DNA of 64,000 nt from Pseudomonadota bacterium. Lineage in GTDB: Bacteria > Desulfobacterota > Desulfobulbia > Desulfobulbales > JAGXFP01. A model generated the notes under the pieces. That model ran no database searches and was not told the origin of the DNA. It was given only the letters and a program-made list of their open reading frames with translations. The position numbers and the translations under genes were made by a program. How positions within the stretch are numbered: position 1 is the stretch's first letter; every line of letters starts with the position of its first letter. The DNA is taken from assembly GCA_018823285.1 (NCBI GenBank), contig JAHJIQ010000007.1, forward strand, positions 4,536-68,535, written 5' to 3'. This document shows positions 3-52,556 of this stretch, one piece after another.

Positions 3-1625
3 AAACTCCAGCTCAATGCGATCAGACTCCAGCTGCCCATCGGGCTCGAAGCGGATTTGAAGGGTGTGGTTGATCTGGTGACCATGAAGGCTGTTTATTT
101 CGAAGGCGATAACGGGGAGATCATCCGCGAGGCGGAGATTCCGGCAGAACTCATGGCGGATGCCGAAGCAGCTCGGGAAGAACTCCTTGATGCCGCTTCC
201 ATGCACTCCGACGAGCTGATGGAAGCGGTGCTCGAAGGAACACCAACCCCGGCAATGATTCGAGACGCAATAAGGCGCGGGACTCTCGCCTTGGACATTA
301 CACCGGTGTTTGTCGGTTCCGCCTATAAGAACAAAGGGGTTCAGGCACTCCTTGACGGGGTGAACAGTTATCTGCCGAACCCGATGGATGTTGAAAATAT
401 CGCGCTTGATCTGAGCAACGGGGAAGCCGAAGTCAAGGTAACCAACCGCCCCGAAGATCCGTTGGTAGCCCTTGCTTTCAAACTCGAAGACGGCCGTTAC
501 GGCCAGCTCACCTATGTCAGAACCTATCAGGGTGTCCTGAAAAAAGGGGATGCCATCGTCAACAGCAGGACGGGCAAGAAGGTCAAGGTCGGGCGGCTGG
601 TCAGGATGCATGCCGACGAGATGGAAGAGATCGACAAGTCCGGCTCAGGAGACATCGTGGCCCTGTTCGGTGTTGATTGTGCATCGGGAGATACCTTTAC
701 TTCAGGGGATCTGAATTACTCGATGAGTTCCATGCATATTCCGGCGCCGGTTATCTCCCTGGCAATTGTGCCGTCGGATAACAAGGCCCAGAACAACATG
801 TCGAAGGCGCTGAACCGCTTCACCAAGGAGGATCCGACCTTCAAGACCTATGTTGATGAAGAAACCAATGAAACCATAATTTCCGGGATGGGAGAACTGC
901 ATCTCGAAGTCTATATCGAAAGGATGAAGAGGGAGTATGGTGCAGTGGTCGCTGTCGGCGCTCCTCAGGTCGCTTACCGCGAAACCATTACCAAAAGAGC
1001 GGAGTTTAACTACAGCCATAAGAAACAGACGGGTGGTTCCGGGCAGTTTGGTCGGGTGGCAGGATACATGGAGCCCACCACGGATGGACAGGAATACGAA
1101 TTTGTCGACAGTATTGTGGGTGGGTCGATTCCCAGGGAATTTATTCCTTCCTGTGATAAGGGTTTCCAGAAGAGTCTGGCCAAGGGTTCCCTGGCGGAAG
1201 CTCCGGTCACCGGGGTGAGAGTGGTCATTAATGACGGTTCCTCGCACGCGGTGGATTCGTCGGATATCGCTTTTCAGCTTGCGGCCATCGGCGCGTTCAA
1301 GGAAGGATATCAGAAGGCAGGCCCGGTATTGATGGAGCCGATCATGAAAGTCTCTGTTGAAGGGCCCACCGAGTTCCAGGGCGGGATCATGGGCAGTATC
1401 AACCAGCGTCGGGGTATGATCATCGGCACAACCGAGGAAGGTAATTATACAGTTGTTGAGGCGGAAGTGCCTCTTTCCGAGATGTTCGGCTATTCGACCA
1501 TATTAAGGTCGCTGACTCAGGGCAAGGCTGAATTTACCATGGAGTTTTCAGTGTATCGCCAGGTGCCGAAGAATGTTGCTGAAGGGATTATTCAGGAACG
1601 GATGAAGCAGAAGAAGAGCAATTAA
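3..1625 (+). CDS. fusA: Elongation factor G, 5'-truncated at the window edge (C-terminal ~540 aa)
   Basis: Frame 3 is open from nt 3 ([26 protein letters not shown]...). The translation has EF-G domain II-V hallmarks ([37 protein letters not shown]). It is not followed by tuf, so it may be an EF-G paralog. Confidence 0.9.
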
Positions 1626-3780: not shown

Positions 3781-4674
3781 ATGACAGAATCACTGCCGAC
3801 CAATGATGTGAGGTTCAGGCAGATTCAGGACTATATCGACCGGATGCCGAGTCTTTCGACAACCGTTACGAAAGTGCTGGAAGTGTGCAATCGTCCCAAT
3901 ACTTCTCCCAATGATCTTAACCGAGTGATTTCCCTCGACCCGGTTCTCACCGGTCAGGTCCTCAAGCTGATCAATTCGGCTTATTATTCATTGCCCAACC
4001 AGATCACGTCACTCACCAGGGCCATCATTATGCTCGGCCTGAATACCGTTAAAAACCTGGCTTTGAGTACCGCTGTTCTCGGGGCTTTCAAGTCGGATGC
4101 CTTTCAGGCCCTGTCCATGGACGGATTCTGGGCCCACTCCATCTGCGTTGGAGTGACCGTAAAAACCCTGGCCGCGAAACTTGAAATTCCAGTGGCCATG
4201 CGGGAGGAGTATTTTGTAGCCGGTCTGCTTCACGATCTTGGTAAAATCCCGCTGAACAACTGCTTTTCAGAGGAGTACAGCCGGATATTGAACCTGGCGG
4301 TCCTTGAGCAGGGGCCGTTGAAGCGTGCCGAGGAGATGATGCTTGGCTTTGATCATGGTCAGGTTGGCGGAATGATCGCCGGCAAATGGCAACTCAATGA
4401 AGCAATTACCGATGTGCTGAGCGACCATCACACTCCGGAAAATATCACCGGGGAGAGAAGTCAGATGGTGATGATGACCAGTCTGGCCAATGTCTATGCC
4501 AACATCAATCAGTTCGGTACCGCAGGGGATCAGTATCAGGATGAATCCCAGCTTTCCTGGCTGTTGGAATCACTGGGTCTTAAATGGAGTGACCTGCAGG
4601 CGATGGAGGGGACGGTCAGGGCTGAAATTGAAAAAGCACAGATTTTTCTCCAAATCTCAGAGGAGGCGTGGTGA
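3781..4674 (+). CDS. HDOD domain signalling protein
   Basis: LPSLSTTVTKVLEVCNRPNTSPNDLNRVISLDPVLTGQVLKLINSAYYSL and the later HDLGK motif are typical of HDOD domains. Confidence 0.8.
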   Translation: MTESLPTNDVRFRQIQDYIDRMPSLSTTVTKVLEVCNRPNTSPNDLNRVISLDPVLTGQVLKLINSAYYSLPNQITSLTRAIIMLGLNTVKNLALSTAVLGAFKSDAFQALSMDGFWAHSICVGVTVKTLAAKLEIPVAMREEYFVAGLLHDLGKIPLNNCFSEEYSRILNLAVLEQGPLKRAEEMMLGFDHGQVGGMIAGKWQLNEAITDVLSDHHTPENITGERSQMVMMTSLANVYANINQFGTAGDQYQDESQLSWLLESLGLKWSDLQAMEGTVRAEIEKAQIFLQISEEAW

Positions 4675-5588
4675 TGCAGGTTAAATTCTGGGGAGTGCGG
4701 GGGTCTATTCCCTGCCCCGGGCCCGATACCGTGAAGTATGGGGGAAACACACCATGTATAGAGCTGCGAATAAGGGAGAGCGGAAGGCTTATTATTATTG
4801 ATGCCGGATCAGGGATCCGGGAACTCGGCAATTATATGATGGCCCATGACCTGCCAAAAGGACCGATCCGGGCCGAACTTTTTCTGACTCACACCCATTG
4901 GGACCACATCATGGGATATCCGTTTTTCACCCCGATCTATATTCCGGGCACCGAGATCAGGGTCTGCGGGCCGGTGAACCATGAGGAGGACAGCCTGGAG
5001 GGAATAGTCGGCGGTCAGATGTCATACCGTTATTTCCCGGTCCGACATCTGGAGCTGGCGGCAAAGATTAAATACACCAGCCTGAAGGAAGGGAAATTCG
5101 ATCTGGGAGAAGGGATGGTTCTTACCACCAAATATCTGAACCATCCTGTGTTATGTCTGGGCTACCGTTTTCAATACAAGGGAAAGGTGTTCTGTACCGC
5201 ATACGACACCGAACCGTTTCAGAACCTTTTCACCACAGATATCAATGATCCCTCGTATGACAAAGACATGGCGCAGGAAGGAAAGGCTGTGGCCGATGAG
5301 CAGAACAAGGCCATTGAAGATTTCTTCAAGGGCGTCGATGTGCTTGTTCACGACGCGCAATACACCAAACGGGAGTATAAGGAATCCAGAGTGGGCTGGG
5401 GGCACAGCTCGATTGAGCATACGGTTGCTGCGGCAAACCGGGCCGGGGTCAAGAATCTGGTGCTTTTTCATCACGAGCCTGGCCGTTCCGACAAAGAGAT
5501 CGACAGGATCGCAGAAGAACTCCATGCCGGCAAGAAATGGTCAACGAATCTGATCTTTGCCCGGGAAGGGATGGTGATCGATGTGTAG
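4674..5588 (+). CDS. MBL-fold metallo-hydrolase
   Basis: THTHWDH metal-binding motif. AGGAGG lies 7 nt upstream of ATG 4674, which overlaps the HDOD stop codon (TGATG). The GTG at 4668 is an alternative start. Confidence 0.8.
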   Translation: MQVKFWGVRGSIPCPGPDTVKYGGNTPCIELRIRESGRLIIIDAGSGIRELGNYMMAHDLPKGPIRAELFLTHTHWDHIMGYPFFTPIYIPGTEIRVCGPVNHEEDSLEGIVGGQMSYRYFPVRHLELAAKIKYTSLKEGKFDLGEGMVLTTKYLNHPVLCLGYRFQYKGKVFCTAYDTEPFQNLFTTDINDPSYDKDMAQEGKAVADEQNKAIEDFFKGVDVLVHDAQYTKREYKESRVGWGHSSIEHTVAAANRAGVKNLVLFHHEPGRSDKEIDRIAEELHAGKKWSTNLIFAREGMVIDV

Positions 5589-5719
5589 TTTAAAGTATCC
5601 CCGCCGGCTCTGATTTATTGCGGTGATCCCTTCCCCTTGATTTTTCCCCGCCATCCTTTTCCCCGGTAACACCGGTTTTTTTCTATACTTCCTTTCCCAT
5701 AGTTTCTATACCTATTCCC

Positions 5720-7897
5720 ATGAATGCGGATAATGCAAAAGGCGATGAAGCGGCACTTGAGGGGATCCTGGAGAGAATCACCTTTCACAGTGAAGAAACC
5801 GGCTTTACCGTTGCCAGGTTGAGAGAGGATGGTGGAGCGGGTGATCTGAAGACGATCGTCGGCACTTTCTCTTCTCTTGCCGTTGGTTCGTCACTCTCAC
5901 TCATTGGAAAATGGGAGAAAGATTCACGTCATGGCGAACAGTTCAAAGTCGAAAAATGCACGATAGTACGCCCCAGTACATTGAAGGGTATTGAAAAGTA
6001 TCTCGGTTCGGGGTTGTTCAAAGGAATCGGCCCTGCTTATGCGGGGAGGATCGTCAAGCGTTTCGGCATAGCGACTCTTGAGGTTCTTGACAAAGAGCCG
6101 GGGAGACTGCGTGAGGTTCAGGGGCTGGGGCGCAAGAAAGTGGCGGGGATCAAAAAAATCTGGCAGGAACAGCGAAATGTCCATGAGATCATGGTCTTTC
6201 TCCAGAGCCATGAAATATCTGCAGCCTACGCGGTCAAGATCTATAAGGTTTATGGTGATGCTTCTTTAGCCGTCGTTCGGGAAAACCCGTATCGTTTGTC
6301 GGAAGATATCTGGGGCATCGGGTTTCTGACCGCGGATCGGATTGCCAGGTCGGTGGGAATGGCAATGGACGACCCCAGGCGTGCCAGAGCAGGCGTTCTT
6401 TACACTCTCAACGAGGCTACGGGGGAGGGACATTGTTTTTTGCCGGAACATGAGTTGCTGGAAAGAAGCAGTCTCCTTCTGGCGATGCCTGTCGAACTGA
6501 TAATCCCTCATCTGCCGCAGTTGGTCGCCGAGGAAAAGCTGGTCTTGGCGGACAAAAGGGTCTACCCGGCCAATCTTTATGCGGCCGAGACGGGCAGCGC
6601 AGCAAATCTGCTCAGAATTGGCGCCGGCACGCCGGTCTGGTGTGGTATTGATTGCGAAGCTGAAATTGTAAAAGTGCAGAAAGAGATCAGTATCGCTCTT
6701 GCCCTGGGCCAATCCGAGGCTTTGCAGGCGGTTCTGGAAAACCGTCTTACCGTCATAACCGGTGGCCCGGGGACTGGGAAAAGCACCATTTTAAAGGCAC
6801 TGGTAATCATTCTGGAAAACAAAGGGTTCAATGTCAGCCTTGCCGCCCCCACCGGCAGAGCTGCCAAGAGACTTGGTGAGGCAACGGGCAGAGAAGCCAG
6901 AACGATTCATCGCCTCCTTGAATTTGATCCTTCCATAAACGGATTTAAGAGAAACAGAGACAATTGTCTTGATGCCGACCTGGTGATTGTTGACGAAGTG
7001 TCGATGCTTGACATCATCCTGGCCAATGCCCTGTTGAGGTCGATTTCCGCAACCGGTGCGCTGGTGTTGGTCGGTGATGCCGACCAGTTGCCCTCGGTCG
7101 GGCCAGGGAATTTCCTGAAAGATATCATTGAATTCGGCCGGATCAAGGTGTCCCTGCTTACCCGGATATTCAGGCAGGATGAAGGAAGTCTGATCAGCAT
7201 TAATGGGGCCCGGGTTAACCGTGGAGAGCCTCTTGAGCTGTTGCCTGACTTCAAGGGGGAGAAAGATTTTTATTATATTTCCCGGGAAAATCCCGATGAG
7301 ATAGTAAGAGAGATAACCTCTCTCTGCGGCGGCAGACTGACCGTGAAATATGGCTTTGATCCGCTGAAGGATATTCAGGTCCTTTCGCCCATGCGGAAAG
7401 GACTTGTTGGAATTGACAACCTGAACAGCAGTCTGCAGGAGGTTTTGAATCCAGGCAAACAGGAGGTACAAAAAGGGCATGTAAAGTTCAGGGTTGGTGA
7501 TAAAGTCATGCAGTTGCGTAACAATTATGATAAGGATGTATTTAATGGTGACCTTGGTTTCATCGAAACGATTGACGAGGATGAGCAACTGCTGATCCTT
7601 GATATAGAAGGAAGGAAGGTCAGGTATGAGATGTCGGAGCTTTCCGAGCTCCAGTTGGCTTATGCCATAACCGTTCACAAGTCTCAGGGTTCTGAGTTTC
7701 CGTGCATCATCCTGCCTGTCCACACTTCCCACTATCCTCTTTTGCAGAGGAACCTGGTCTATACCGGAATAACCCGTGGCCGGCAGCTGGTGGTGATTGT
7801 GGGAAGTCGCAAGGCACTTGGCATTGCCATCCGCAATGATCAAGTGATGCAGAGAAACAGCGGGCTGAAGGAGAGACTGGCTGATGGTTGTCTATGA
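5720..7897 (+). CDS. recD2: RecD2-type SF1B ATP-dependent DNA helicase (RecD/TraA family)
   Basis: 725 aa. Walker A GGPGTGKST, DEVSMLD, VGDADQLPSVGPG and a C-terminal AITVHKSQGSEF motif, with an N-terminal HhH-like region. Confidence 0.85.
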   Translation: MNADNAKGDEAALEGILERITFHSEETGFTVARLREDGGAGDLKTIVGTFSSLAVGSSLSLIGKWEKDSRHGEQFKVEKCTIVRPSTLKGIEKYLGSGLFKGIGPAYAGRIVKRFGIATLEVLDKEPGRLREVQGLGRKKVAGIKKIWQEQRNVHEIMVFLQSHEISAAYAVKIYKVYGDASLAVVRENPYRLSEDIWGIGFLTADRIARSVGMAMDDPRRARAGVLYTLNEATGEGHCFLPEHELLERSSLLLAMPVELIIPHLPQLVAEEKLVLADKRVYPANLYAAETGSAANLLRIGAGTPVWCGIDCEAEIVKVQKEISIALALGQSEALQAVLENRLTVITGGPGTGKSTILKALVIILENKGFNVSLAAPTGRAAKRLGEATGREARTIHRLLEFDPSINGFKRNRDNCLDADLVIVDEVSMLDIILANALLRSISATGALVLVGDADQLPSVGPGNFLKDIIEFGRIKVSLLTRIFRQDEGSLISINGARVNRGEPLELLPDFKGEKDFYYISRENPDEIVREITSLCGGRLTVKYGFDPLKDIQVLSPMRKGLVGIDNLNSSLQEVLNPGKQEVQKGHVKFRVGDKVMQLRNNYDKDVFNGDLGFIETIDEDEQLLILDIEGRKVRYEMSELSELQLAYAITVHKSQGSEFPCIILPVHTSHYPLLQRNLVYTGITRGRQLVVIVGSRKALGIAIRNDQVMQRNSGLKERLADGCL

Positions 7898-40125: not shown

Positions 40126-40848
40126 CTACCGGAAGACGTTGGGGCCAGGTGAAGGTGACCTTGTAGCGGGTTGCAGTCCAGCGGGATTCAGATGTCTGGC
40201 GGCTTTCGGGATAAAAAAAGATGCTGCAAAAAGAAATACTGCCAACAGATTCTGCCAGGAGAGCAATGTTTCCCATCGGCCGCTGAGCCACACCTCGGTT
40301 AATGCCACGAAAAAGAAAGTCAGGATGATGCCGCTCCCGATCTTGCCGAAGAACGTCCCCCAGAAAAATTGACTGAAGGTCACTCCGGTCAGTCCCATAC
40401 TGAAGTTGAGCGGGGTGAAAGGAAAGAAAATGAGGCGGAGATAGAGGGTGGTTGTAAAGCCGTTCTCGGTAATTTTGCCGTCGTACATTTTTAATCGATC
40501 ATCTGCCACTGAGGCTGCAAAATCTCTCCCCAGATAACGACCAATCCAGAAACTCATTGAGGCGCCGAGCATTGCGCCGGCAAAGTTGCAGATGATTCCT
40601 CCTGACAAGCCGAACAGCATCGCGCCCATGGCGGTAAAAAAACTCGCGGGCAGGAACATGGAGATGCCGAAGCCATAGATAAGAATAAAAATTATTGGCG
40701 AGGCAAAGCTGTTGGCGGCAACAAAATTCCGCAGCGCCTGCGGCTCGATATACTGCCCGACAGGGGTAAGCCGAAAAATGAGTAGGGAAGAGAGCAGAAA
40801 GAGAATCAGAAGTATTGCCTTGATCAGCGGGTAATTTTTATTTCGCAT
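40126..40848 (-). CDS. TVP38/TMEM64 (DedA-related, VTT domain) membrane protein
   Basis: 240 aa, polytopic, with the GRYLGRDF motif typical of the family. Starts 12 nt after the methyltransferase stop. Confidence 0.75.
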   Translation of the reverse strand: MRNKNYPLIKAILLILFLLSSLLIFRLTPVGQYIEPQALRNFVAANSFASPIIFILIYGFGISMFLPASFFTAMGAMLFGLSGGIICNFAGAMLGASMSFWIGRYLGRDFAASVADDRLKMYDGKITENGFTTTLYLRLIFFPFTPLNFSMGLTGVTFSQFFWGTFFGKIGSGIILTFFFVALTEVWLSGRWETLLSWQNLLAVFLFAASFFIPKAARHLNPAGLQPATRSPSPGPNVFR

Positions 40849-40860
40849 GATTTTGCCGAT

Positions 40861-41757
40861 CTATTGTTCCCTGTAACCTTTGAACAGAGCCCCGCCGGTA
40901 TACTCGGAAGTGGAAAAACCTGTTTCACCAAGAAACTCTGCATTCTGGAAACCTGCCTCCTGCATCATCTTGAGCTGGTCCCCGACCGGGACCGTGCCGC
41001 CGATTCATTGTGACCAGGCTTCAGGGCTTGCCGCCAGCGAGTCAGGCAACTCTTTTTTGAGAATAATATCGGCGAACTGCAGCCTTCCCCCCGGTTTAAG
41101 AACCCGCCGGATTTCCGTAAAGAGTTGTTTTTTCCGGGGAGAAAGATTGATGACCCCATTGGAGATGGCAACGTCAAAGGTCTGGTCAGGATATGGGATA
41201 TTATCTGTATCGACATGATGGAGTTCAAAGTTTCTGATGTTCGCGAGTTCCATATTTTTTCGGGCCCGATTGACCATCTCTTCAGTGAGATCAATACCAC
41301 AGACCCTGCCTTTTTCGCCAACCAGCCTGCCGGCAACAATCATATCAAACCCGCCGCCACAGCCGATATCGAGAACCTGACTGCCGGGTGGAATCGCATC
41401 AATTGAAAACGGGTTTCCCACGCTGCAGAAAGACGCAAGTAATTCCGCGGGGGAATTCTCCACAATGATTTGGTCATAGTTCAGTGCCAGCGCCCCATTT
41501 TTACCGGTGGGGTATTGGAATTTTCCTTCAGCAGAGACAGCCACGGCCGCATACTTGCTTCGGATGGCATCTCTGATGGTGTTGAAATTATCCGAGGCTG
41601 ATATTTCACACGAGCTCGGGAAGTGTTGTTTCTTCAAACGACTGAAGAAACTCAGAAGGGTTGTGAGGAAGCCCGGGCTTTCTTGCCGACGACCGCCGGC
41701 ATTTCCCTTCGAGGGTCAACAACGGGGATTTGAAATTGTATTCTCATTATCAGTCAT
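40861..41757 (-). CDS. ArsM-like SAM-dependent methyltransferase SELENOPROTEIN (in-frame UGA at 41005-41007, plus a probable second UGA at 41716-41718)
   Basis: The tracked ORF (41005..41637) stops at a TGA, but the frame continues for 47 more codons (IGGTVPVGDQLKMMQEAGFQNAEFLGETGF...) to TAG 40861. The UGA falls at WSQ-U-IGG, where ArsM-type enzymes have W..C(I/V)(A/G)G. Upstream, the only strong RBS (AAGGAGG, 7 nt) serves ATG 41757. That ATG is in frame through ...NPRC-UGA-PSKG... into the tracked ORF. Motif I is VLDIGCGGGFD. Confidence 0.75.
40977..40993 (-). promoter_or_regulatory. SECIS-like hairpin for the C-terminal UGA of the methyltransferase
   Basis: GGUCCC-GGUCG-GGGACC begins 12 nt 3' of the UGA. 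The GGUC-type apical loop matches classical bacterial SECIS elements. Confidence 0.6.
41684..41701 (-). promoter_or_regulatory. SECIS-like hairpin for the N-terminal UGA of the methyltransferase
   Basis: UGCCGGC-GGUC-GUCGGCA (7-bp stem including one G.U pair, GGUC tetraloop) begins 15 nt 3' of the UGA. Confidence 0.5.
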
Positions 41758-41774: not shown

Positions 41775-42065
41775 TCATTTTACAAACAGAGAGTATGCGA
41801 TCATGCCCAGACTGAAGACCGTTACGCCATGTAGAAGCGGCATGCTCCAGGGGCTGGCGTGTTCCCGAGCTTTGTAGGCCCGGTAATAGGCAAAACCAAG
41901 CAAGACAACAGTGGCAACGAGAAAGAGCCAGCGGTATCTGGCAAACCACATGGACAGGGTAAAACTTCCCAGGCCGAAACTGGCCAGGAGCAGAGGGAGT
42001 TGTCAGCAGAAGGCGTAGGCGAGTGCAGAGGTGACTGCGCCTCCGCCGACGAGTTTATTGTCCAT
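41775..42065 (-). CDS. MerT-like small membrane transporter SELENOPROTEIN (Cys-Sec pair in TM1; UGA at 42003-42005)
   Basis: Absent from the ORF track. ATG 42065 with RBS aggaga gives MDNKLVGGGAVTSALAYAFC-U-QLPLLLASFGLGSF...(96 codons) ending at TGA 41775. This resembles MerT TM1 (...ILASACCLGPLVLIALG...), with the second Cys of the CC pair replaced by UGA. Confidence 0.65.
41969..41988 (-). promoter_or_regulatory. SECIS-like hairpin for the MerT-like gene
   Basis: CCUGGCC-AGUUUC-GGCCUGG begins 15 nt 3' of the UGA (one U.U mismatch). Confidence 0.45.
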
Positions 42066-42085: not shown

Positions 42086-42550
42086 TTATTTCAGAATTTC
42101 TTCAATACCGGTTACAAGTTCGGAATAATGAATGCTATGTGAGATTTTCTTTTCGATCCGTCCATCCCTTGAAATAAAATAAGTCTCCGGAATCCCTTTG
42201 GCGCCGAGGGTTTCGGCGATTCCATCTTCCGGGCCGACCGGATAGGTCAAGTGAAACTCTTTCGCGAATTTCCGGATATCCTTGTCTTTGCTCAGTGTAA
42301 AAGCGCCGAGAAAAAGAACGCCCCTGTCCTTGTAAACCTGGTATGCCCGCTGTAACTCAGGGGCTTCGGCTTTACATTTTTTTCACCAGTGCGAGCCGAT
42401 GTTTATCACCAGGGGCGTTCCTTTGAGGTCGCTCAGGATGTACGTGGTTCCTTCCAGATCGGTGAATGAAAAGTTCAATGCAGTGCTTGCATATAAAGGG
42501 CTGCCGACCAGAAGGGTCACAAGTAAATAAAATGGGACAATGTGTTTCAC
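42086..42550 (-). CDS. TlpA/ResA-like periplasmic thiol:disulfide oxidoreductase SELENOPROTEIN (W-U-K-K-C active site; UGA at 42383-42385)
   Basis: Absent from the ORF track. GTG 42550 overlaps the stop of the upstream kinase (GTGA). The protein has a signal peptide (KHIVPFYLLVTLLVGSPLYA), then FSFTDLEGTTYILSDLKGTPLVINIGSHW-U-KKCKAEAPELQRAY...GIPETYFISRDGRI. This is a full redoxin fold with Sec at the first position of the CxxC motif. 154 codons to TAA 42086. Confidence 0.8.
42345..42364 (-). promoter_or_regulatory. SECIS-like hairpin for the TlpA-like gene
   Basis: GCCCCUG-AGUUA-CAG(C)GGGC begins 19 nt 3' of the UGA (7 bp with one bulged C). Confidence 0.5.
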
Positions 42551-43602
42551 GATGAAGTGCCTCCTGCGGGTTGATTATGTATTGCCGGACCAATGGGAAG
42601 AGAGATCGTGAAAGTCGAACCTTGTCCGGGTTGACTGTCAACACTGACCGATCCATTATGCTCCCTGGCGGTACGTTCCACGATAGGCAGGCCAAGACCG
42701 GGGCCGTTTGTTTTTGTTGTGTAAAAAGGTTTGAAGATGTTTTTCTGTTCTTCCTGGGAGATACCGGGGCCATGATCCGTAACTGAAATTCTTACCGTTT
42801 TCCCGTCGGTGGACGTGCCCACAAGAATTTCTGTATTTGCCGCAGAGGATTCCACGCTGTTCTCAAGGAGCTTGGTCAGCGCTTCACGCATTCTTGCGGT
42901 GTCGCAAGGGGTCAGTGGCAGGTGTTCCGCCAGCCTGAGCAGCACCGGTTTTTTCAGGTTGTCCACGGAATTTGAAAATTCATCAACCGCTGTACGGGTC
43001 ACGCTGTTGATGTCGCATGGTTCGAGTGCCAGCGGGGCCGGATTGGAAAAACTTAAGAATATCGAGGTCAGGGTGTTCAGCTTCTTGACCTCTTCTTCAA
43101 TAACGTTCAGGAATTCGGTGACGAGCTCCCCGTGGAAATTTTTTTTCAGATACGAGGCGGCGATGCCGATTGAATGCAGGGGGTTCCTTGTTTCATGGGC
43201 CACGGCGGCGATCATGTTGCCGAGTTCAGCGGTGCGAGCGTCTTTTGCCTGCTGCCGATCGTTTTTTTCCTGTTCCGAGAGATTGAATTTCAGGTCCTTG
43301 ACCATCTGGTTGAAGACCTCGACAAATTCACTGATTTCGTCCCCGCACGACTCCTTGTAGACCACACATTTGCGGCAATCTCCCAGCTTCTGGGCGAATT
43401 CCCCCTGAACAGCTCCGTGGCAGCTGGTTCCGGCGATGGACCAGCATCGGAGTCTGCCGTAAGCCGGGCAATCTTTTTTTTCACAGCCGAGTCGTTCCCA
43501 GCATTTGACGATCTGCGGATTTTCCTCTTCCACATCATAATTGCCGGACTGCAGGGCGATCATCTTTTCCTTCAAGGACTGGAGTTTTTTGATCTTGCTC
43601 AT
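42547..43602 (-). CDS. Soluble sensor histidine kinase with an N-terminal Cys-rich two-CW-type domain
   Basis: N-terminus KCWERLGCEKKDCPAYGRLRCWSIAGTSCHG...CRKCVVYKESC (two CW dipeptides, 9 Cys), a coiled coil, then HisKA (AAVAHETRNPL) and HATPase_c (GPGLGLPIV). No TM segment. Confidence 0.8.
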   Translation of the reverse strand: MSKIKKLQSLKEKMIALQSGNYDVEEENPQIVKCWERLGCEKKDCPAYGRLRCWSIAGTSCHGAVQGEFAQKLGDCRKCVVYKESCGDEISEFVEVFNQMVKDLKFNLSEQEKNDRQQAKDARTAELGNMIAAVAHETRNPLHSIGIAASYLKKNFHGELVTEFLNVIEEEVKKLNTLTSIFLSFSNPAPLALEPCDINSVTRTAVDEFSNSVDNLKKPVLLRLAEHLPLTPCDTARMREALTKLLENSVESSAANTEILVGTSTDGKTVRISVTDHGPGISQEEQKNIFKPFYTTKTNGPGLGLPIVERTAREHNGSVSVDSQPGQGSTFTISLPIGPAIHNQPAGGTSS

Positions 43603-43633: not shown

Positions 43634-44968
43634 TCAGGGTTGAAGCAGGCCGAGATTTTTCATCTTGGTGCGTAGCTGCTTTCTGGAAATGCCCAGGATG
43701 ACGGCCGCGCTGGACTGGTTCCATGCCGCCTTGTCGAGGGCTTTTCTGATGATCTTTTTTTCCATTTCCGGCAGGTTCAGCTCGTTTAGTTCAAGGCACT
43801 CTTCCTCGCCGGTGGCCCTGATCTTACAGGGCAGGCACTCGATATTGATTGAATCGTGAGGGCAGAGGATGACTGCCCGCTCCATAACGTTTTCCAGTTC
43901 CCGGACGTTGCCTTGCCAGTCATATTGTTTAAGGATATCAAATACTTCCCGGTCTATCCCGTGTATTTTTTTCTTGTTCTTGCGGCAGAAGTGGTCGAGG
44001 TAATAATTGGCCAGCAGCGAGATGTCGTCCTTTCTTTCCCGCAGGGGGGGCACATTGATGGTGATTACATTCAAACGGTAATAAAGATCGGTGCGGAAAT
44101 CGCCGGAGTCGACATCTTTTTCAATGTCCCGGTTGGTGGCGGAGATGACCCTGACATCGACCATGATACTTTCTTTGCCACCCACCCGGCGGATCTCTCT
44201 TTCCTGGAGAAAGCGGAGCAGTTTTTTTTCAAGCGCGTAATCAAGATCGCCGATTTCGTCCAGGAAAACTGTGCCGCCATGGGCCATTTCGATCAGGCCG
44301 ATCTTGCGTTCTCCGGCCCCGGAAAAAGCCCCTTTCTCGTAGCCGAACAACTCGCTTTCCATCAGCTCGGAGGGGATGGTCGTGCAATCGATGGGGATAA
44401 ACGGCTTGTCGGCGCGAAGAGATGAATAGTGGACAGCCCTGGCCACCAGTTCCTTGCCGGTTCCCGATTCTCCGAGAATCAGAATGTTGGCATCGGTCTT
44501 GGCAACCCTCCGGACCAGGGAGAAGACCTCCTGCATCGGTTTGGTTTTGCCGATGATATTCAGGAACTGATGCCTGCCGGGTGTTTCGTCATCCTCGTCG
44601 CGTTCACGCGGGAAAAGCACATCATTGACCACGCTTTCCATGACGTTCAGCTTTACCGGCTTGGTAAGATAGGTGTATGCACCCTTGCGCATGGCGTTCA
44701 CGGCAAGTTCAATGGTGCCGAACGCGGTGAGCAGAATGAAGGGCGTCTCCGGGGTCATGGTCTTGACCTTTTCCAGGAGCTCTTCGCCGTTCATTCCCGC
44801 CATCTTGTAGTCGGAGATAACAAGGTCGTAGTGAGTGCTTTTGCACAGCTCAAGTGCCTCTTCACCGGAGCGGGCGGTTTCCACAACCTTGTCTTTGCCC
44901 GAGAGCGCGGCGGACAGAACCTTCAGGGAATTGATCTCGTCGTCCACCAGCAGAATTTTATATGACAT
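43634..44968 (-). CDS. NtrC-family sigma-54-dependent response regulator (REC, AAA+, Fis-type HTH)
   Basis: REC domain (LLVDDE...D in DLVISDYKMAGMNG), AAA+ Walker A GESGTGKE, sigma-54 contact loop GAFSGA, and a C-terminal HTH (AAVILGISRKQLRTKMK). Confidence 0.9.
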   Translation of the reverse strand: MSYKILLVDDEINSLKVLSAALSGKDKVVETARSGEEALELCKSTHYDLVISDYKMAGMNGEELLEKVKTMTPETPFILLTAFGTIELAVNAMRKGAYTYLTKPVKLNVMESVVNDVLFPRERDEDDETPGRHQFLNIIGKTKPMQEVFSLVRRVAKTDANILILGESGTGKELVARAVHYSSLRADKPFIPIDCTTIPSELMESELFGYEKGAFSGAGERKIGLIEMAHGGTVFLDEIGDLDYALEKKLLRFLQEREIRRVGGKESIMVDVRVISATNRDIEKDVDSGDFRTDLYYRLNVITINVPPLRERKDDISLLANYYLDHFCRKNKKKIHGIDREVFDILKQYDWQGNVRELENVMERAVILCPHDSINIECLPCKIRATGEEECLELNELNLPEMEKKIIRKALDKAAWNQSSAAVILGISRKQLRTKMKNLGLLQP

Positions 44969-44974
44969 CAGCGG

Positions 44975-46720
44975 TTATCCTCCTTGCAGGATGAGCGTGA
45001 ATTTGCTGCCTTGCCCTTCGGTGCTTTCCAGGACAAGATCGCCCCGGTGCTCCCTGGCGATCTTTTTGGAAATGGCCAGGCCCAGGCCGGTGCCCCTGGT
45101 CTTGGTGGTATAAAAAGGATTGAAGACATGTCTGATTTTGTCCGGGGCGATGCCCGATCCGTCATCTTCTACAACAAGATGGACTTTTCCCTGGACGGCA
45201 AGTGTCGAAATAGAGACCTTGCCATCCCGGTCGATGGCGTCAAAGGCATTGATCAGCAGATTGATCAGCACCTGCTTGATCTGGTTCTGGTCACAATGAA
45301 CGGGTGGAAGCGAGGAGTCGATATCGGAAACGAGAGTGATGCCATGGCTTCTGGCCTCTTCACCCAGCAGGGAAAGGGTGGTGCGGACAATCTCGCCCAG
45401 GTCGTTCGGGGCCAGCTCCTGGACCATGGGTTTGGCAAAACCGAGCAATGTCCCGGTCAGCTTGTTGATGCGTGAAACCTCATCGCTAATGACCCCGGTG
45501 AACTCTTCGATAAGGCTGCCGCTGTAGTTTTTCCGGATATAACCTGCCGCCCCGCCGATGGCGTTTAGCGGGTTTTTGATCTCATGGGCGAGGGTTGCCG
45601 CGAGCTCCCCGGTTGCGGCGAGCCGGCACAATCTTTCCTGCTCGTCGACGGCGTGGCCGAGTTTCATGACCATTTCATTGAAGGCGTTCGACAACTCGCC
45701 AATTTCATCGGTCCCGGAAACCGGGATGTTTCTGTTGAAACCTTCGTCGACCAGCCGGTCGACGGAATTTTTGAGAAGGAGGATCGGTCGGACAAGTCTG
45801 ATGATCAGCCCCAGGCCGAAAACAAGGGTGGCCGCAAAAGAGATCAGCATCAGGATGAAAACCAGCAGCCTCCGGCCTTCAAGGTCGAGGGGGCTTATGT
45901 TCTCGTAAAAAATTACCGTGCCGAAGAGAATCAGGGGGACGGCGGTCAGGAGACTGAAGGCGGTCAGGGCCCGGAAGAGAATGCTTGAGCCGAGAGTGGT
46001 GAAGGTCGTCCGGTTGATGCTGAAGAGGAGAATCATAAAGCCTACCGGCCGGAACAGATGCCCGTGCAGCCAGACGGCAGAGCCTATGGGGGCCGGGAAG
46101 AAAAGGAAGGTTGCAGAAATGCAGAGCAGGAGAAAACCGATTGCCGACCAGAGAATTTCTATTTTGCGGGTCCGGTAAAATGCGGCAAAGAGCAGCATGC
46201 AGACCAGCCCGCTTAAATAGGCGACACTGATCCAGACCAGCGGTCGGAACTGGCCGAAGATCGGGAATTTCTCGTAAATATCGGGAACCAGAAAGCCAAG
46301 CAGGGGCAGATAACAGAGCAGAAGGATCTTTTTCCGACCGGGATTTTCAGAAGAGATGGCCACGATAAAGGTCAGGAGGCCGAAACAATATCCCAGCAGG
46401 GTCTGGTACAGGAGGTTCAGGTTCAGGTGGTTCAGGTGGATAACCGCATGGAAGAAGCTGCTGATCCCTAAAATCAGGAAGGAGGCGGAGAAAAGCATCG
46501 CCCGGCTCTTGTGAACATGATCAAGGCCGGGGGTTCGGTGATGCATCAGGATAAATCTGGTGGCGATGATCAGACAGATTGAAGCGATAAGAAATTCCTC
46601 GCCCGTGTGATAATCGAGCAGGAATCCTTTATCGGTATAGTAGGAGGGCCAGTTCATCAAGAATTTGCTTTTCTCCTGATATTTTTTGCATGGACGGGAA
46701 ACCAAAAATGCACAATCCAT
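44975..46720 (-). CDS. Membrane sensor histidine kinase (multi-TM sensor, HAMP, HisKA, HATPase_c)
   Basis: About 8 TM helices, then HAMP-like, ATLAHEIKNPL (H-box) and GTGLGLAISKKIA (G2 box). An alternative start at 46657 (MNWPSYY) is possible. Confidence 0.85.
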   Translation of the reverse strand: MDCAFLVSRPCKKYQEKSKFLMNWPSYYTDKGFLLDYHTGEEFLIASICLIIATRFILMHHRTPGLDHVHKSRAMLFSASFLILGISSFFHAVIHLNHLNLNLLYQTLLGYCFGLLTFIVAISSENPGRKKILLLCYLPLLGFLVPDIYEKFPIFGQFRPLVWISVAYLSGLVCMLLFAAFYRTRKIEILWSAIGFLLLCISATFLFFPAPIGSAVWLHGHLFRPVGFMILLFSINRTTFTTLGSSILFRALTAFSLLTAVPLILFGTVIFYENISPLDLEGRRLLVFILMLISFAATLVFGLGLIIRLVRPILLLKNSVDRLVDEGFNRNIPVSGTDEIGELSNAFNEMVMKLGHAVDEQERLCRLAATGELAATLAHEIKNPLNAIGGAAGYIRKNYSGSLIEEFTGVISDEVSRINKLTGTLLGFAKPMVQELAPNDLGEIVRTTLSLLGEEARSHGITLVSDIDSSLPPVHCDQNQIKQVLINLLINAFDAIDRDGKVSISTLAVQGKVHLVVEDDGSGIAPDKIRHVFNPFYTTKTRGTGLGLAISKKIAREHRGDLVLESTEGQGSKFTLILQGG

Positions 46721-50297: not shown

Positions 50298-51731
50298 ATG
50301 GAAATTATTATCCCAAGAAGGAACGTTGTCTGGGCCTACGTTATTGTCGGCTTCTTCAGCCTGATAAGCGTGGTGACCTTCGCAATCCACGAATATTACA
50401 TCTACCTCTCGGCCTACCTCTGGTTCGGATTTATCTACGGCATGTGCCTGCAGTACGGCAGGTTCTGCTTTGCCTCGGCCTTCAGGGACCTTTTTGCGGT
50501 GGGCGTTCCGCGAATGGTCGTCGGAATCATGATCGCGACCCTTCTCTTTGCCATCACCTCGGCCTTTGTTTCGGCCACCGGCTGGAGCACCTTCCATGCG
50601 GCCCCGGTCAGTTTTCACGCCACCATTGCCGGCCTGATTTTCGGGGTCGGGATGGTCTTCGCCGGCGGTTGCGCTTCCGGGTCGCTGTACAAGACCGGGG
50701 AGGGCAACGGGGTCTCGCTGCTGGTGATCCTCTCGATCAGTGTTACCCAGTCTCTCTTTGTCGACTGGGGCGGGATCCTCAACAGACTGGTCCCCCAGGC
50801 CTGGCATGAATCGGCCCTTAAAAAGGGGCTCCCCGATTCGATCAATGTCGGTGATGGGTTTATCGACCAGTATCTCGCCGGGTATGTCTGGGACCAGCCG
50901 GTCATGACCTATGCCCAGAGCCTCGGCATGAAAGACGACACCCTTTCCGGAGCGCTGCTGGGCAATGCCCTGGCCGGAGTTTTCGTTCCCGCCCTGATCA
51001 TCCTCTTGATCGTCTATTTTTTCTGGGTCAAGAAAAACTATGTCCGGAAGCTGCAGAAGGAGAAAGGCGGGAATATTACTCTCAAAGATCATCTGCACGG
51101 CTTCTGGGGCATGATCATGGCCTCCAAAAGGACCTCGATTGCAGGGCTGCTGCTGGGGATCGCCTGCGGTCTGCAGATGTTTGTCATCGAAGGCATGCGG
51201 ATGAAATTCGGGGTCAAAAATGCCGGCACCCTGCTGGTGAGGCTTGGCCATGACTACGGGATTTCGGCCAAAGGGACCGTGTTTGACCCCGGCTACTGGT
51301 ATGTGACCACCCAGGAAGCACAGTGGGTCGGGTGGATGCTGCAGAAGCTCGGGATGGAGAATATGGACAATATCTATTTTGGCTGGGTGAACGGCATTCC
51401 GAGCCCGGCCATCAACCCCGCCGACTGGATGTCGGTTGCCCTGATCGGCGGTGCTGCGGTCATGGCGCTCCTGCACGGAGAATTCAAGTTCAAGGCTCCG
51501 ACTTTAGAGCTTGCGGTCTGGGCCATTATCGGCGGCGCCCTGATGGGGATCGGTTCCAGGCTGGCCCTGGGGTGTAATGTCGGGGCGTTTTTTGTCCGGA
51601 CCGCCATGGGCGATATGTCCGGCTGGCTGTTCGGCCTCGGCATGATCGGCGGGGCCTATATCGGGGTCAAGTTTTTTAACTGGTACACGGAGCGGAAGAT
51701 GGCCGGCGAGATGGCCGGTTTCGATTTATAG
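50298..51731 (+). CDS. YeeE/YedE-family membrane transporter (thiosulfate/sulfur- or selenium-compound uptake family)
   Basis: Two halves with conserved Cys loops (FAGGCASGSLYK, LALGCNVGAFF). 477 aa. RBS aggagg. Confidence 0.8.
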   Translation: MEIIIPRRNVVWAYVIVGFFSLISVVTFAIHEYYIYLSAYLWFGFIYGMCLQYGRFCFASAFRDLFAVGVPRMVVGIMIATLLFAITSAFVSATGWSTFHAAPVSFHATIAGLIFGVGMVFAGGCASGSLYKTGEGNGVSLLVILSISVTQSLFVDWGGILNRLVPQAWHESALKKGLPDSINVGDGFIDQYLAGYVWDQPVMTYAQSLGMKDDTLSGALLGNALAGVFVPALIILLIVYFFWVKKNYVRKLQKEKGGNITLKDHLHGFWGMIMASKRTSIAGLLLGIACGLQMFVIEGMRMKFGVKNAGTLLVRLGHDYGISAKGTVFDPGYWYVTTQEAQWVGWMLQKLGMENMDNIYFGWVNGIPSPAINPADWMSVALIGGAAVMALLHGEFKFKAPTLELAVWAIIGGALMGIGSRLALGCNVGAFFVRTAMGDMSGWLFGLGMIGGAYIGVKFFNWYTERKMAGEMAGFDL

Positions 51732-51854
51732 CTTAAGTTGAACTGCTCGTTTGCTCATACCGATACGTGAGCTTGCGAGACATCGAGACTTCTATCCGAA
51801 GGGTGAATAACAATTTAGCATTTTGAAGAATAAGCTGAAAACGGAGGTACAACC

Positions 51855-52106
51855 ATGGCTATGACATTTGCAAAAAAAGAAGAAGGCGTCTACACCCTCG
51901 ATGTGACCGGGTATGTCTGCCCGCATCCCCAGATCTATACCAAGAAGGCCCTTGAAAAGATCCGGAGCGGCGAAATGCTGGAAGTGATTTTCGATAACCC
52001 CTCTTCATCAGAATCGGTTTCCGCCATGTGTGATAACAACGGCAACGATATCGTCGAGAAAAATTCGGATGGCGGCCGGTATGTATTCAAAATTGTCAAA
52101 GGCTGA
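51855..52106 (+). CDS. TusA/YeeD/YedF-type sulfurtransferase with an intact Cys-Pro motif
   Basis: LDVTGYVCPHPQIYTKKALEKIRSGEMLEVIFDN... is a canonical TusA-fold signature, directly downstream of the YeeE-like gene. Confidence 0.8.
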   Translation: MAMTFAKKEEGVYTLDVTGYVCPHPQIYTKKALEKIRSGEMLEVIFDNPSSSESVSAMCDNNGNDIVEKNSDGGRYVFKIVKG

Positions 52107-52155
52107 GAGCGCTGTTTTGTAGCTGCAGTAGAGAAAAAAAAGAGGAGGAGCACAC

Positions 52156-52341
52156 ATGAAACAGCATCTTATGATCATCATCGCCATAGTGGTCGGTTTC
52201 AGCACTTTTATGCTGGGCTACAGCCTGCCGCCGTTTCTGGAGGTTGGCTTTGGAGATGGTGCCGGTATCGAGGGCGGGGTTGCTCCCGATTCGGAACTGC
52301 TGAAGCAGTATGAAAATCTTTACAAGAGCGAAGAGGAATAA
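52156..52341 (+). CDS. Small single-TM protein, paralog A
   Basis: RBS aggagg. N-terminal TM (IIIAIVVGFSTFMLGY), Gly-rich linker, C-terminus LLKQYENLYKSEEE. Confidence 0.5.
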   Translation: MKQHLMIIIAIVVGFSTFMLGYSLPPFLEVGFGDGAGIEGGVAPDSELLKQYENLYKSEEE

Positions 52342-52352
52342 GGAGGAGCGGG

Positions 52353-52556
52353 ATGAAATCGGGCCAGTTTTTTTTGATCGTGACGATTATCGCCGGAGCC
52401 TGCTTTTTCGGAGGCTACAAGCTTTCTGCCAACACCGGAACCGAACCGGGCTATTTTGGCGCGGTTGAGGCTGCCGGATACGGTGGCGGTGGTGACAAGA
52501 TCGAAGGCGTTACTGATGAGATGAGCAAATATTACAAGTCACTGCAGGAAGAATAG
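52353..52556 (+). CDS. Small single-TM protein, paralog B
   Basis: RBS aaggagg. N-terminal TM (FFLIVTIIAGACFFGGY), Gly-rich linker, C-terminus MSKYYKSLQEE. Same architecture as the preceding gene. Confidence 0.5.
   Translation: MKSGQFFLIVTIIAGACFFGGYKLSANTGTEPGYFGAVEAAGYGGGGDKIEGVTDEMSKYYKSLQEE

Follow-up and report, generated by a model that had tools for sequence, protein, structure and literature searches.

A predicted exported thioredoxin-fold selenoprotein and its selenocysteine-rich gene neighborhood in a Desulfobulbales genome

Does an in-frame TGA codon terminate a short open reading frame (ORF) in a Desulfobulbales genome, or does it specify selenocysteine (Sec, U) at the active site of a redoxin? 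The question is raised by a minus-strand gene of contig JAHJIQ010000007.1 (assembly GCA_018823285.1), of which we analyzed a 64-kb stretch (positions 4,536 to 68,535), hereafter called the window; coordinates below are those of the window. A first-pass annotation had pointed out that translation from a GTG at 42550 yields a thioredoxin-like protein interrupted by a single TGA exactly at the first redox position, GSHW-U-KKC. We consider that the gene encodes a genuine exported ResA/TlpA-fold Sec protein, whose UGA at 42385-42383 is decoded as Sec via an RNA hairpin at 42364-42345, with a probability of about 0.9.

The redoxin coding sequence lies at 42086..42550 on the minus strand and comprises a GTG start, 154 sense codons and a TAA stop at 42088-42086, with Sec as codon 56 (42383..42385), that is, the first position of the U-K-K-C redox motif. 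Translation reproduced both the start and the interruption as first described, including the overlap of the GTG (42550-42548) with the TGA stop (42549-42547) of the preceding kinase ORF (42547..43602, minus strand) in the form of a GTGA. This overlap suggests translational coupling, and a GGAGG ribosome-binding site, read from the sequence, is found 9 nt 5' of the GTG (42560..42564, minus strand). The ORF is intact but for one in-frame TGA, in the context VINIGSHW-(TGA)-KKCKAEAPELQ, after which 98 codons remain that include GIPETYFISRDGRI. In GenBank (GCA_018812685.1, contig JAHJDD010000024.1), the coding sequence at this locus is a 55-aa stub only, hypothetical protein KKG47_05450 (MBU0480527.1).

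Once U was replaced by Cys, the protein matched the Pfam families AhpC-TSA (PF00578; 1.7e-16, 60.7 bits for a gathering cut-off of 26), Redoxin (PF08534; 3.5e-12, 46.8 bits for 26.6) and Thioredoxin_8 (PF13905; 28 bits for 27). The 98 residues located after the TGA were sufficient on their own to pass the AhpC-TSA cut-off of 26 (30.1 bits, 5.1e-7), and the 55-residue N-terminal stub fell below it. The profile alignment suggested by the first-pass annotation was thus significant both for the whole protein and for its downstream part. The closest solved relatives were Bacillus ResA proteins (E 1.7e-17), with U56 aligned to the first Cys of their WCxPC motif and the IPET of the window protein aligned with their cis-Pro loop, LPTS/LPTT. 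The fold is ResA-like: the AlphaFold2 model of a homolog, P0002, 54% identical to the window protein, consists of one thioredoxin-like domain with a predicted confidence (pLDDT) >92 over residues 31-161, wherein the W-[U]-KKC motif sits at the start of helix alpha1 (helix 64-83), the N-terminus having a low pLDDT. Foldseek comparison of this model with ResA gave target-normalised TM scores of 0.86-0.91 and a root-mean-square deviation of 1.4-1.5 A.

The earlier label of TlpA/ResA-like protein holds at the level of fold and superfamily, the latter being that of the TlpA/ResA/CcmG-like extracytoplasmic thiol:disulfide oxidoreductases (cd02966). It does not extend to ResA, TlpA, DsbE or StoA proper, as scores against the corresponding NCBIfam models (ResA/TlpA/DsbE(CcmG)/StoA) were far below cut-off, namely 78.8 < 170 for NF002854, 27.2 < 230 for NF047696, 33.1 < 123 for TIGR00385, 20.8 < 359 for NF011941 and 39 < 210 for NF041202. 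Judging from these scores, the redoxin is a member of the superfamily and an ortholog of none of the four. An exhaustive profile search, covering 1.84 billion representatives, gave 308 bits for the cluster of the redoxin itself and 131 bits for the next match, and therefore the subfamily, characterized by the signature [GA][SA]HW-U-x[KQ]-C, is compact and distinct. An alignment-based search brought up ~17 further shortened clusters of 84-97 aa that begin just after the motif and probably represent additional Sec forms. No member of the subfamily, the shortened clusters included, is called a selenoprotein in any source, and no NCBIfam model captures the redoxin.

The N-terminal 21 residues are the most hydrophobic part of the redoxin (11-aa windows) and end in SPLYA/S, the slash marking the predicted cut. 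Hydropathy and homolog conservation delimit a putative signal peptide, MKHIVPFYLLVTLLVGSPLYA followed by S, encoded at 42488..42550 (minus strand); a hydrophobic N-terminus with a PLYA-type end and an invariant Pro18 is conserved in 12 homologs. These features lead us to infer export to the periplasm by means of a cleavable signal peptide.

On DNA, every one of the 13 independent loci compared had a TGA at the equivalent codon, the frame being open on both sides. The loci read on DNA were the window, L003, L004, L005, L006/7, L008 (a Desulfobulbaceae metagenome-assembled genome, MAG), L010, L011, L012, L013, L014/15 (a Desulfobacterales MAG) and L016. Most relatives came from protein searches followed by contig look-ups, family-alignment scans of genome and metagenome contigs giving two loci and one locus, respectively, and L009 (Bacteroidales MAG, 26% identity) was left out of the comparison. 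The TGA-bearing loci are 53-69% identical to the window protein and share the motif HW-U-xxC, in which xx is KK, NK, HQ, HK, GK or QK. No frameshift, extra stop or decay was found among close relatives, all of which kept the TGA and an intact frame. A sequencing error at the TGA was excluded because the identical feature occurs in many independent assemblies.

Downstream of the TGA, the proportion of synonymous differences (pS) was 0.6-0.95 in the more distant pairs, that is, at or near saturation, and that of non-synonymous differences (pN) was 0.05-0.25 overall. Saturated pS together with low pN indicates that the region is translated and under purifying selection; in the pairs allowing an estimate, the ratio of the corresponding rates (dN/dS) after the TGA was 0.10-0.26. 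With this selection, and with the post-TGA part passing the AhpC-TSA cut-off by itself, the earlier claim that family features persist after the TGA was borne out. The two outcomes said beforehand to speak against it, a region 3' of the TGA devoid of redoxin homology and frameshifted or decayed orthologs, were looked for and neither occurred. Cys-containing orthologs, which the first-pass annotation had proposed to look for, were found among relatives of 44-49% identity, where Cys occupies the position aligned to U56 (GSHW-C-PPC at 49%, WCVPC, WCAPC and WCSAC). WCPEC and other Cys-form motifs were found among distant relatives, and the first Cys of the WCxPC motif of ResA and of CcmG/TlpA-type homologs falls at the same place.

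The three closest full-length database homologs (P0001-P0003) read GSHWWKKC, and in their DNA the codon behind the second W is TGA. These entries, along with P0179, P0180 and P0182 (loci L003-L005), are metagenome gene calls made with a TGA=Trp code, which places a spurious Trp (HWWKKC) at the Sec position. Such calls are a systematic artefact that can be used for finding selenoproteins.

In bacteria, SelB-GTP-Sec-tRNA(Sec) binds a hairpin located after the UGA and delivers Sec to this codon. In the redoxin, the UGA at 42385-42383 would be recoded co-translationally by this mechanism, aided by the hairpin at 42364-42345. Comparative folding and synonymous-site conservation delimited a core hairpin, GCCCCUG-AGUUA-CAG-C-GGGC (42345..42364, minus strand), which resembles a bacterial Sec insertion sequence (bSECIS) and coincides exactly with the stretch that the first-pass annotation had singled out for folding. 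It has a 7-bp bulged stem and the loop AGUUA, starts 18 nt after the UGA and has its apical loop 25 nt after it. The hairpin was paired in eight of eight aligned sequences, and RNAalifold gave the same structure independently. One compensatory pair was observed, C-G in the window and L010 and U-A in the other six, through synonymous changes of an Ala and an Arg codon. Across seven lineages, codons for invariant amino acids were frozen to a single codon at 4 of 8 sites inside the hairpin vs 2 of 40 elsewhere (Fisher p=0.0046). Published bSECIS criteria include a loop of 3-9 nt with a G in its first two positions, a stem of 4-16 bp, a spacing of 16-37 nt and a minimum free energy <= -7.5 kcal/mol (PMC13188914). 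Hairpins within these bounds follow all four in-frame TGAs of the operon formed by the redoxin gene and the two genes after it; for the redoxin, the loop is AGUUA, the spacing 25 nt and the energy of the extended stem -12.7 kcal/mol.

Several observations weigh against the hairpin as a Sec signal, and against Sec decoding here. Single-sequence folding was not better than that of shuffled sequences, with z-scores of -0.75 for the redoxin and of -0.75 to +0.13 over the four post-UGA regions, none significant. The bSECIS rule set was also passed by 86 of 400 arbitrary TGAs (21.5%), and we rejected it as a proof by itself. The lone covarying pair may correspond to one evolutionary event, and a shuffle control reached one such pair in 19 of 500 trials. 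Moreover, 3 of 11 homologs missed the -7.5 kcal/mol threshold and the two most diverged loci, L011 and L012, have different hairpins. An Rfam scan of the whole 64-kb window at gathering thresholds returned a tRNA-Arg only, and no curated RNA family at the UGA site. Neither tRNA-Sec nor selA, selB or selD was found within the window, where ARAGORN likewise detected only the tRNA-Arg. Since single-sequence energies were not significant, we relied on the comparative evidence for the hairpin.

Two other fates of the UGA have to be weighed. It may be a true stop, the locus then being a pseudogene or coding for a peptide of 55 aa, with a C-terminal remainder that is dead or translated independently. 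The GenBank call of a 55-aa stub, the frequency of TGA among genuine stops in the window and the lack of visible Sec machinery within it would all fit. Yet a stop would split the fold exactly at the catalytic residue, and it is at odds with the retention of the same TGA in 13 of 13 independent lineages free of frameshifts and added stops, with the strong purifying selection on the 98 downstream codons and with the conserved hairpin and frozen synonymous sites after the TGA; we regard it as extremely improbable. The other possibility is that the UGA is read through as something other than Sec, that is, as Trp or Gly in an alternative code, or by near-cognate or Cys insertion. It may draw on the public gene calls that translate several homologs with TGA=Trp (GSHWWKKC). 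However, TGA is the true stop of 23 of the 40 long ORFs of the window, being the commonest genuine stop, and is never found in frame among 16,822 long-ORF codons. Therefore, the standard code is used and an alternative genetic code is excluded. In addition, the TGAs of the operon are confined to catalytic-Cys positions of homologs and each is accompanied by a bSECIS-type hairpin, which is the signature of Sec, and a CxxC-type protein with Trp in place of its nucleophile would be inactive. Insertion of another residue thus seems very improbable, and we infer that the inserted residue is Sec.

The redoxin gene belongs to a row of same-strand genes, two of which also appear to code for selenoproteins. 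The next one (41775..42065, minus strand) would encode a 96-aa membrane protein with a Sec-UGA at 42005-42003, in the context AYAFC-U-QLPLLL, a true TGA stop at 41777-41775 and, after the Sec-UGA, a hairpin UCCUGGCC-AGUUUC-GGCCUGGGA at 41989-41967. The protein has three hydrophobic segments, the C-U being located in the first one, where MerT has the Cys pair of its first transmembrane segment (TM1), and it contains no other Cys. MerT has a second, cytoplasmic Cys pair. Scores were below cut-off for PF02411 (25.9 < 32.9), NF033560 (43.5 < 130) and the MerT/CopZ selenoprotein model NF045683 (23.8 < 375), and we consider the predicted product to be MerT-like, not a MerT. Its TGA and its hairpin (CCUGGCC-AGUUU[C/U]-GGCC/GGUU...) are conserved in L003, L004 and L008, and the C-U motif is also found in L011, L014/15, L016 and L017. 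Database homologs are all truncated "hypothetical proteins", and GenBank records a 58-aa fragment for the window gene (KKG47_05440).

The third gene (40861..41757, minus strand), preceded by a strong GGAGG ribosome-binding site, would encode a 298-aa ArsM-like S-adenosylmethionine (SAM) methyltransferase with two in-frame TGAs, that is, a double selenoprotein; in GenBank it is a 179-aa fragment. The first Sec-UGA (41718-41716, codon 14) lies in PRC-U-PSK and is followed by the hairpin UGCCGGC-GGUC-GUCGGCA at 41701-41684; the second one (41007-41005) lies in WSQ-U-IGG and is followed by GGUCCC-GGUCG-GGGACC at 40993-40977. L003 and L008 keep both TGAs and show compensatory changes in the stems. 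In an alignment with solved arsenic methyltransferase chains, the second U falls on the Cys of GECLGGA, which we take to be the As(III) ligand Cys224 of CmArsM in the numbering of its As(III)-binding pair, Cys174/Cys224. The methyltransferase scored 196.9 < 263 with NF008823 and 273-291 bits with ArsM selenoprotein models whose cut-offs are 460-575. The enzyme looks ArsM-like, and its substrate may be other than arsenite. Taken together, the three adjacent genes hold four predicted Sec codons, and all three are putative unannotated selenoproteins.

The row ends with a VTT/DedA-family membrane protein gene (40126..40848, minus strand; PF09335, 1.2e-19). Directly 5' of the redoxin gene and on the same strand, 42547-43602 encodes a histidine kinase whose N-terminus is Cys-rich; further upstream come a gene for a sigma-54-dependent response regulator (43634-44968) and one for a HAMP histidine kinase (44975-46720). 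The Cys-rich N-terminal region of the first kinase reads CWERLGCEKKDCPAYGRLRCWSIAGTSCHG...CRKCVVYKESCGDE, and this kinase pairs with the sigma-54 response regulator. It is a candidate metal or redox sensor of the operon.

Elsewhere in the window, a scan for TGA-interrupted genes gave 90 candidates, and inspection of the 16 most plausible ones revealed no convincing case. The same scan yielded no independent known selenoprotein (FdhA, HdrA, SelD etc.) in the window that would back the use of Sec. At 50298-52106 (plus strand), ~8 kb from the Sec cassette, we noticed a TusA-like gene preceded by a gene for a YeeE/YedE-family transporter (Sulf_transp) that has the Cys form GGCASGS. The predicted selenoproteins listed in a 2026 review include a GUxSG form of this transporter family (PMC13188914). 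The same-frame run formed by TusA and two small annotated ORFs of 61 and 67 aa, with only TGAs between them, at 51834-52556 (plus strand) was rejected as a selenoprotein, the inter-TGA segments being of low complexity and non-coding in appearance, so that these TGAs look like ordinary stops.

Among the related loci, two types of cassette are found repeatedly. Cassette A (window, L003 and L008, partly L004) consists of redoxin(U), MerT-like(CU) and methyltransferase(CU, U). Cassette B (L011, L014/15 and L016, partly L006/7 and L013) shows the order small ORF, redoxin(U), TsoA-like, MerT-like(CU) and DUF5714/MbdU-like. An ArsR-type regulator lies upstream in cassette B of L014/15 and L016, and ArsR is also found 5' of the redoxin in L010. 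The redoxin(U)/MerT-like(CU) pairing occurs in seven independent locus groups, namely the window, L003, L004, L008, L011, L014/15 and L016.

In cassette B, the protein of ~170 aa encoded between the redoxin and the MerT-like gene carries an MV[DE]H-U-I[KN]EC motif (L006 794-1303; L007 936-1136; L011 ~800-1300; L013 988-1500; L014 ~5400-5930; L016 ~5350-5900). With 97 bits for a cut-off of 170 in NF045695, it is a distant relative of the LULAxC selenoprotein TsoA. The DUF5714/MbdU-like protein is Cys-rich and has an N-terminal C-U-[PTA]P..GGR[RQ] tag (L011 ~1590-1997; L014 6324-6877; L015 2668-3456; L016 ~6200-6463; L017 458-1276); its score with NF045648 was 131 bits for a cut-off of 600. The N-terminal C-U-xP...GGR tag is common to this protein and to the window methyltransferase, and such a common tag suggests a shared docking or hand-off module.

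The Sec-cassette neighborhood was not found around the Cys-form relatives L018 and L019, whose neighbors are unrelated, which indicates that linkage to MerT-like genes and ArsR is peculiar to the Sec subfamily. Cys-form relatives adjoin genes for a di-haem peroxidase and YtkA, or redox genes. Beside the Cys-form redoxin of L019, a rhodanese-like ORF (602-1020, plus strand) has two in-frame TGAs in its active-site loop, VFY-U-D-U-LNEAISAR, and is possibly a UxU rhodanese selenoprotein.

As for the function of the redoxin, Sec56 would be the attacking residue. Placed where helix alpha1 begins, Sec56 and Cys59 would alternate between a selenol/thiol and a selenenylsulfide form. Alternatively, the two residues together may act as ligands of a soft metal(loid) in the periplasm. 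Because the redoxin/MerT-like pairing is recurrent, ArsR regulators are found nearby, the C-U tag is shared and transporter-type selenoproteins of this sort have been implicated in Hg/As resistance (review, PMC13188914), we tentatively put forward as the likeliest role, though at somewhat less than even odds, that the redoxin, MerT-like and ArsM-like proteins form a module that would capture, import and methylate or sequester a thiophilic metal(loid) such as As or Hg, under sigma-54 or ArsR control, in analogy to the MerP -> MerT -> NmerA -> MerA hand-off. The alignment of the second U of the methyltransferase to the Cys of GECLGGA also speaks for it. The partners assigned to the redoxin in this proposal are deduced from gene neighborhood. 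Several points weigh against such a role. The neighbors differ in L012 (Fer4, VTT and DsrE-like, with no MerT-like gene), the neighborhood is missing from Cys-form relatives as said above, and neither the MerT nor the ArsM match reaches its curated cut-off. Furthermore, the methyltransferase reads ISNGVINLS where a solved arsenic enzyme reads ISNCVCNLS, and the Cys residues of the latter are absent. A more elaborate version, which we find decidedly unlikely, is an all-selenol relay with Sec at every hand-off, a selenium counterpart of the MerP-MerT-MerA thiol relay. The metal(loid) would be caught by the exported U-x-x-C redoxin and handed to the C-U that the MerT-like protein has in TM1, then to the N-terminal C-U-xP...GGR tag of the ArsM-like (cassette A) or DUF5714/MbdU-like (cassette B) protein, and would end up at the active-site Sec, to be methylated or sequestered there, with control by ArsR or by the sigma-54 system and its Cys-rich kinase.

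The redoxin may instead be a genuine selenoprotein with a housekeeping role, namely a periplasmic ResA/CcmG/TlpA-type reductase involved in the maturation of cytochrome c or copper centers, or in the repair of oxidised envelope proteins. It would receive electrons from a protein of the CcdA/DsbD type, and its location beside the MerT-like and ArsM-like genes would mean no more than shared selenium-dependent regulation; in a variant, the small C-U membrane protein would be the transmembrane electron donor, not a metal transporter. Such a role agrees with ResA, DsbE/CcmG and StoA being the closest characterized relatives by sequence and fold, with the peroxidase, YtkA or redox genes beside Cys-form relatives, and with the DsrE-like neighbors that L012 has in place of a MerT-like gene. 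Still, no ccm/res or ccdA/dsbD gene was adjacent in any Sec-form locus inspected, linkage to ArsR, to MerT-like C-U proteins and to metal-binding or methyltransferase selenoproteins was recurrent, and the two residues between U and C are basic or polar (KK, HK, NK, QK, GK, HQ), not the xP of Cys-form WCxPC. On balance, we find this role somewhat unlikely.

Three adjacent genes and several dozen related database entries are now recorded as stubs, fragments or TGA=Trp mistranslations. No curated NCBIfam model fires on the [GA][SA]HW-U-xxC subfamily, and recognizing it would permit correct gene calls. The predicted four-Sec operon, which is conserved in lineages of the Desulfobulbaceae/Desulfobacterales type and recurrently linked to ArsR and to MerT-like and ArsM/MbdU-like selenoproteins, would add to recent evidence that anaerobes use Sec as a metal(loid) ligand, beyond redox catalysis. 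With a predicted exported protein, a membrane protein of 96 aa and an enzyme, it is also a small system open to testing. The redoxin changes neither our view of Sec decoding nor that of the thioredoxin-fold selenoprotein class.

How does the redoxin compare with known systems? UxxC selenoproteins with AhpC-TSA, Redoxin or TlpA-type domains are long-established families (PMC9312934, PMC13188914). Like them, the window protein has AhpC-TSA and Redoxin domains above cut-off and Sec at the first redox position, occurs in anaerobic Deltaproteobacteria/Thermodesulfobacteriota-like hosts and is predicted bioinformatically only. Unlike them, its subfamily has a signature of its own, [GA][SA]HW-U-x[KQ]-C, and stands apart in the profile search. 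The likeness to the published exemplars WP_010940744.1, HEU0032618.1 and MGB1650493.1 is by description, not by sequence.

ResA is an extracytoplasmic CxxC reductase for cytochrome c maturation. The proteins from B. subtilis and B. anthracis (PDB 1st9, 1su9, 4nmu) are the best match to the window protein in sequence and structure, with the motif at the N-terminus of helix alpha1, a cis-Pro-type loop and a predicted N-terminal export or anchor segment. However, the window protein has Sec for the first Cys, KK and not EP/KP in the motif, only 26-29% identity and no cytochrome c maturation genes around it, and it stays at 78.8 bits where 170 are required. The ResA-like WAxxUGC selenoprotein (NF041054) likewise has a TlpA/ResA fold with Sec in the active-site region, but it differs by its UGC motif, to be compared with SHW-U-KKC, and by a profile of 354 positions, with which the window protein scored 18.1 bits for a cut-off of 300.

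In the mer relay, Hg passes from MerP (periplasmic CxxC) to MerT (CC in TM1), to the CxxC tail NmerA and to MerA. The window offers a parallel, with an exported U-x-x-C protein, a three-helix membrane protein with C-U in TM1 and, in the cytoplasm, an enzyme that combines a C-U tag at its N-terminus with a U in the active site, all as predicted from the genes. In contrast, its periplasmic partner has a thioredoxin fold and not the HMA fold of MerP, its enzyme is a methyltransferase and not a reductase, and its membrane protein is below MerT thresholds with no Cys beyond the C-U.

Adjacent Sec genes also characterize the multi-selenoprotein neighborhoods reportedly described by Haft and Tolstoy in 2025, which are said to comprise Tso ("three selenoprotein operon"), MbdU, ArsM/AhpD, ArsM/DUF2284 and MTase/UXPK-star. 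TsoA-like (MVEH-U-IKEC) and MbdU-like genes stand beside the redoxin in related loci, and the ArsM selenoprotein models hit the window enzyme over their methyltransferase domain (E around 1e-81 to 1e-87). Yet all matches to the NCBIfam models for these neighborhoods (NF045695, NF045648, NF041537, NF041536 and NF047649) are sub-cut-off (97 < 170; 131 < 600; 291 < 510; 273 < 460 and 575), and the proteins of the window and of related loci are relatives, not members. MerT-family C-U selenoproteins, of which a small group was noted by Haft & Gwadz (bioRxiv 10.1101/2022.07.06.499078), a Sec arsenite methyltransferase (UxxG) and the multi-selenoprotein operons SAO and Tso are already catalogued (PMC9312934, PMC13188914, bioRxiv 10.1101/2022.07.06.499078). 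The three-gene, four-Sec cassette may be a novel variation on described neighborhoods, although it may have been described before in Haft and Tolstoy's 2025 work, and the redoxin represents an unannotated, distinct subfamily of an already known kind of selenoprotein, not a new class.

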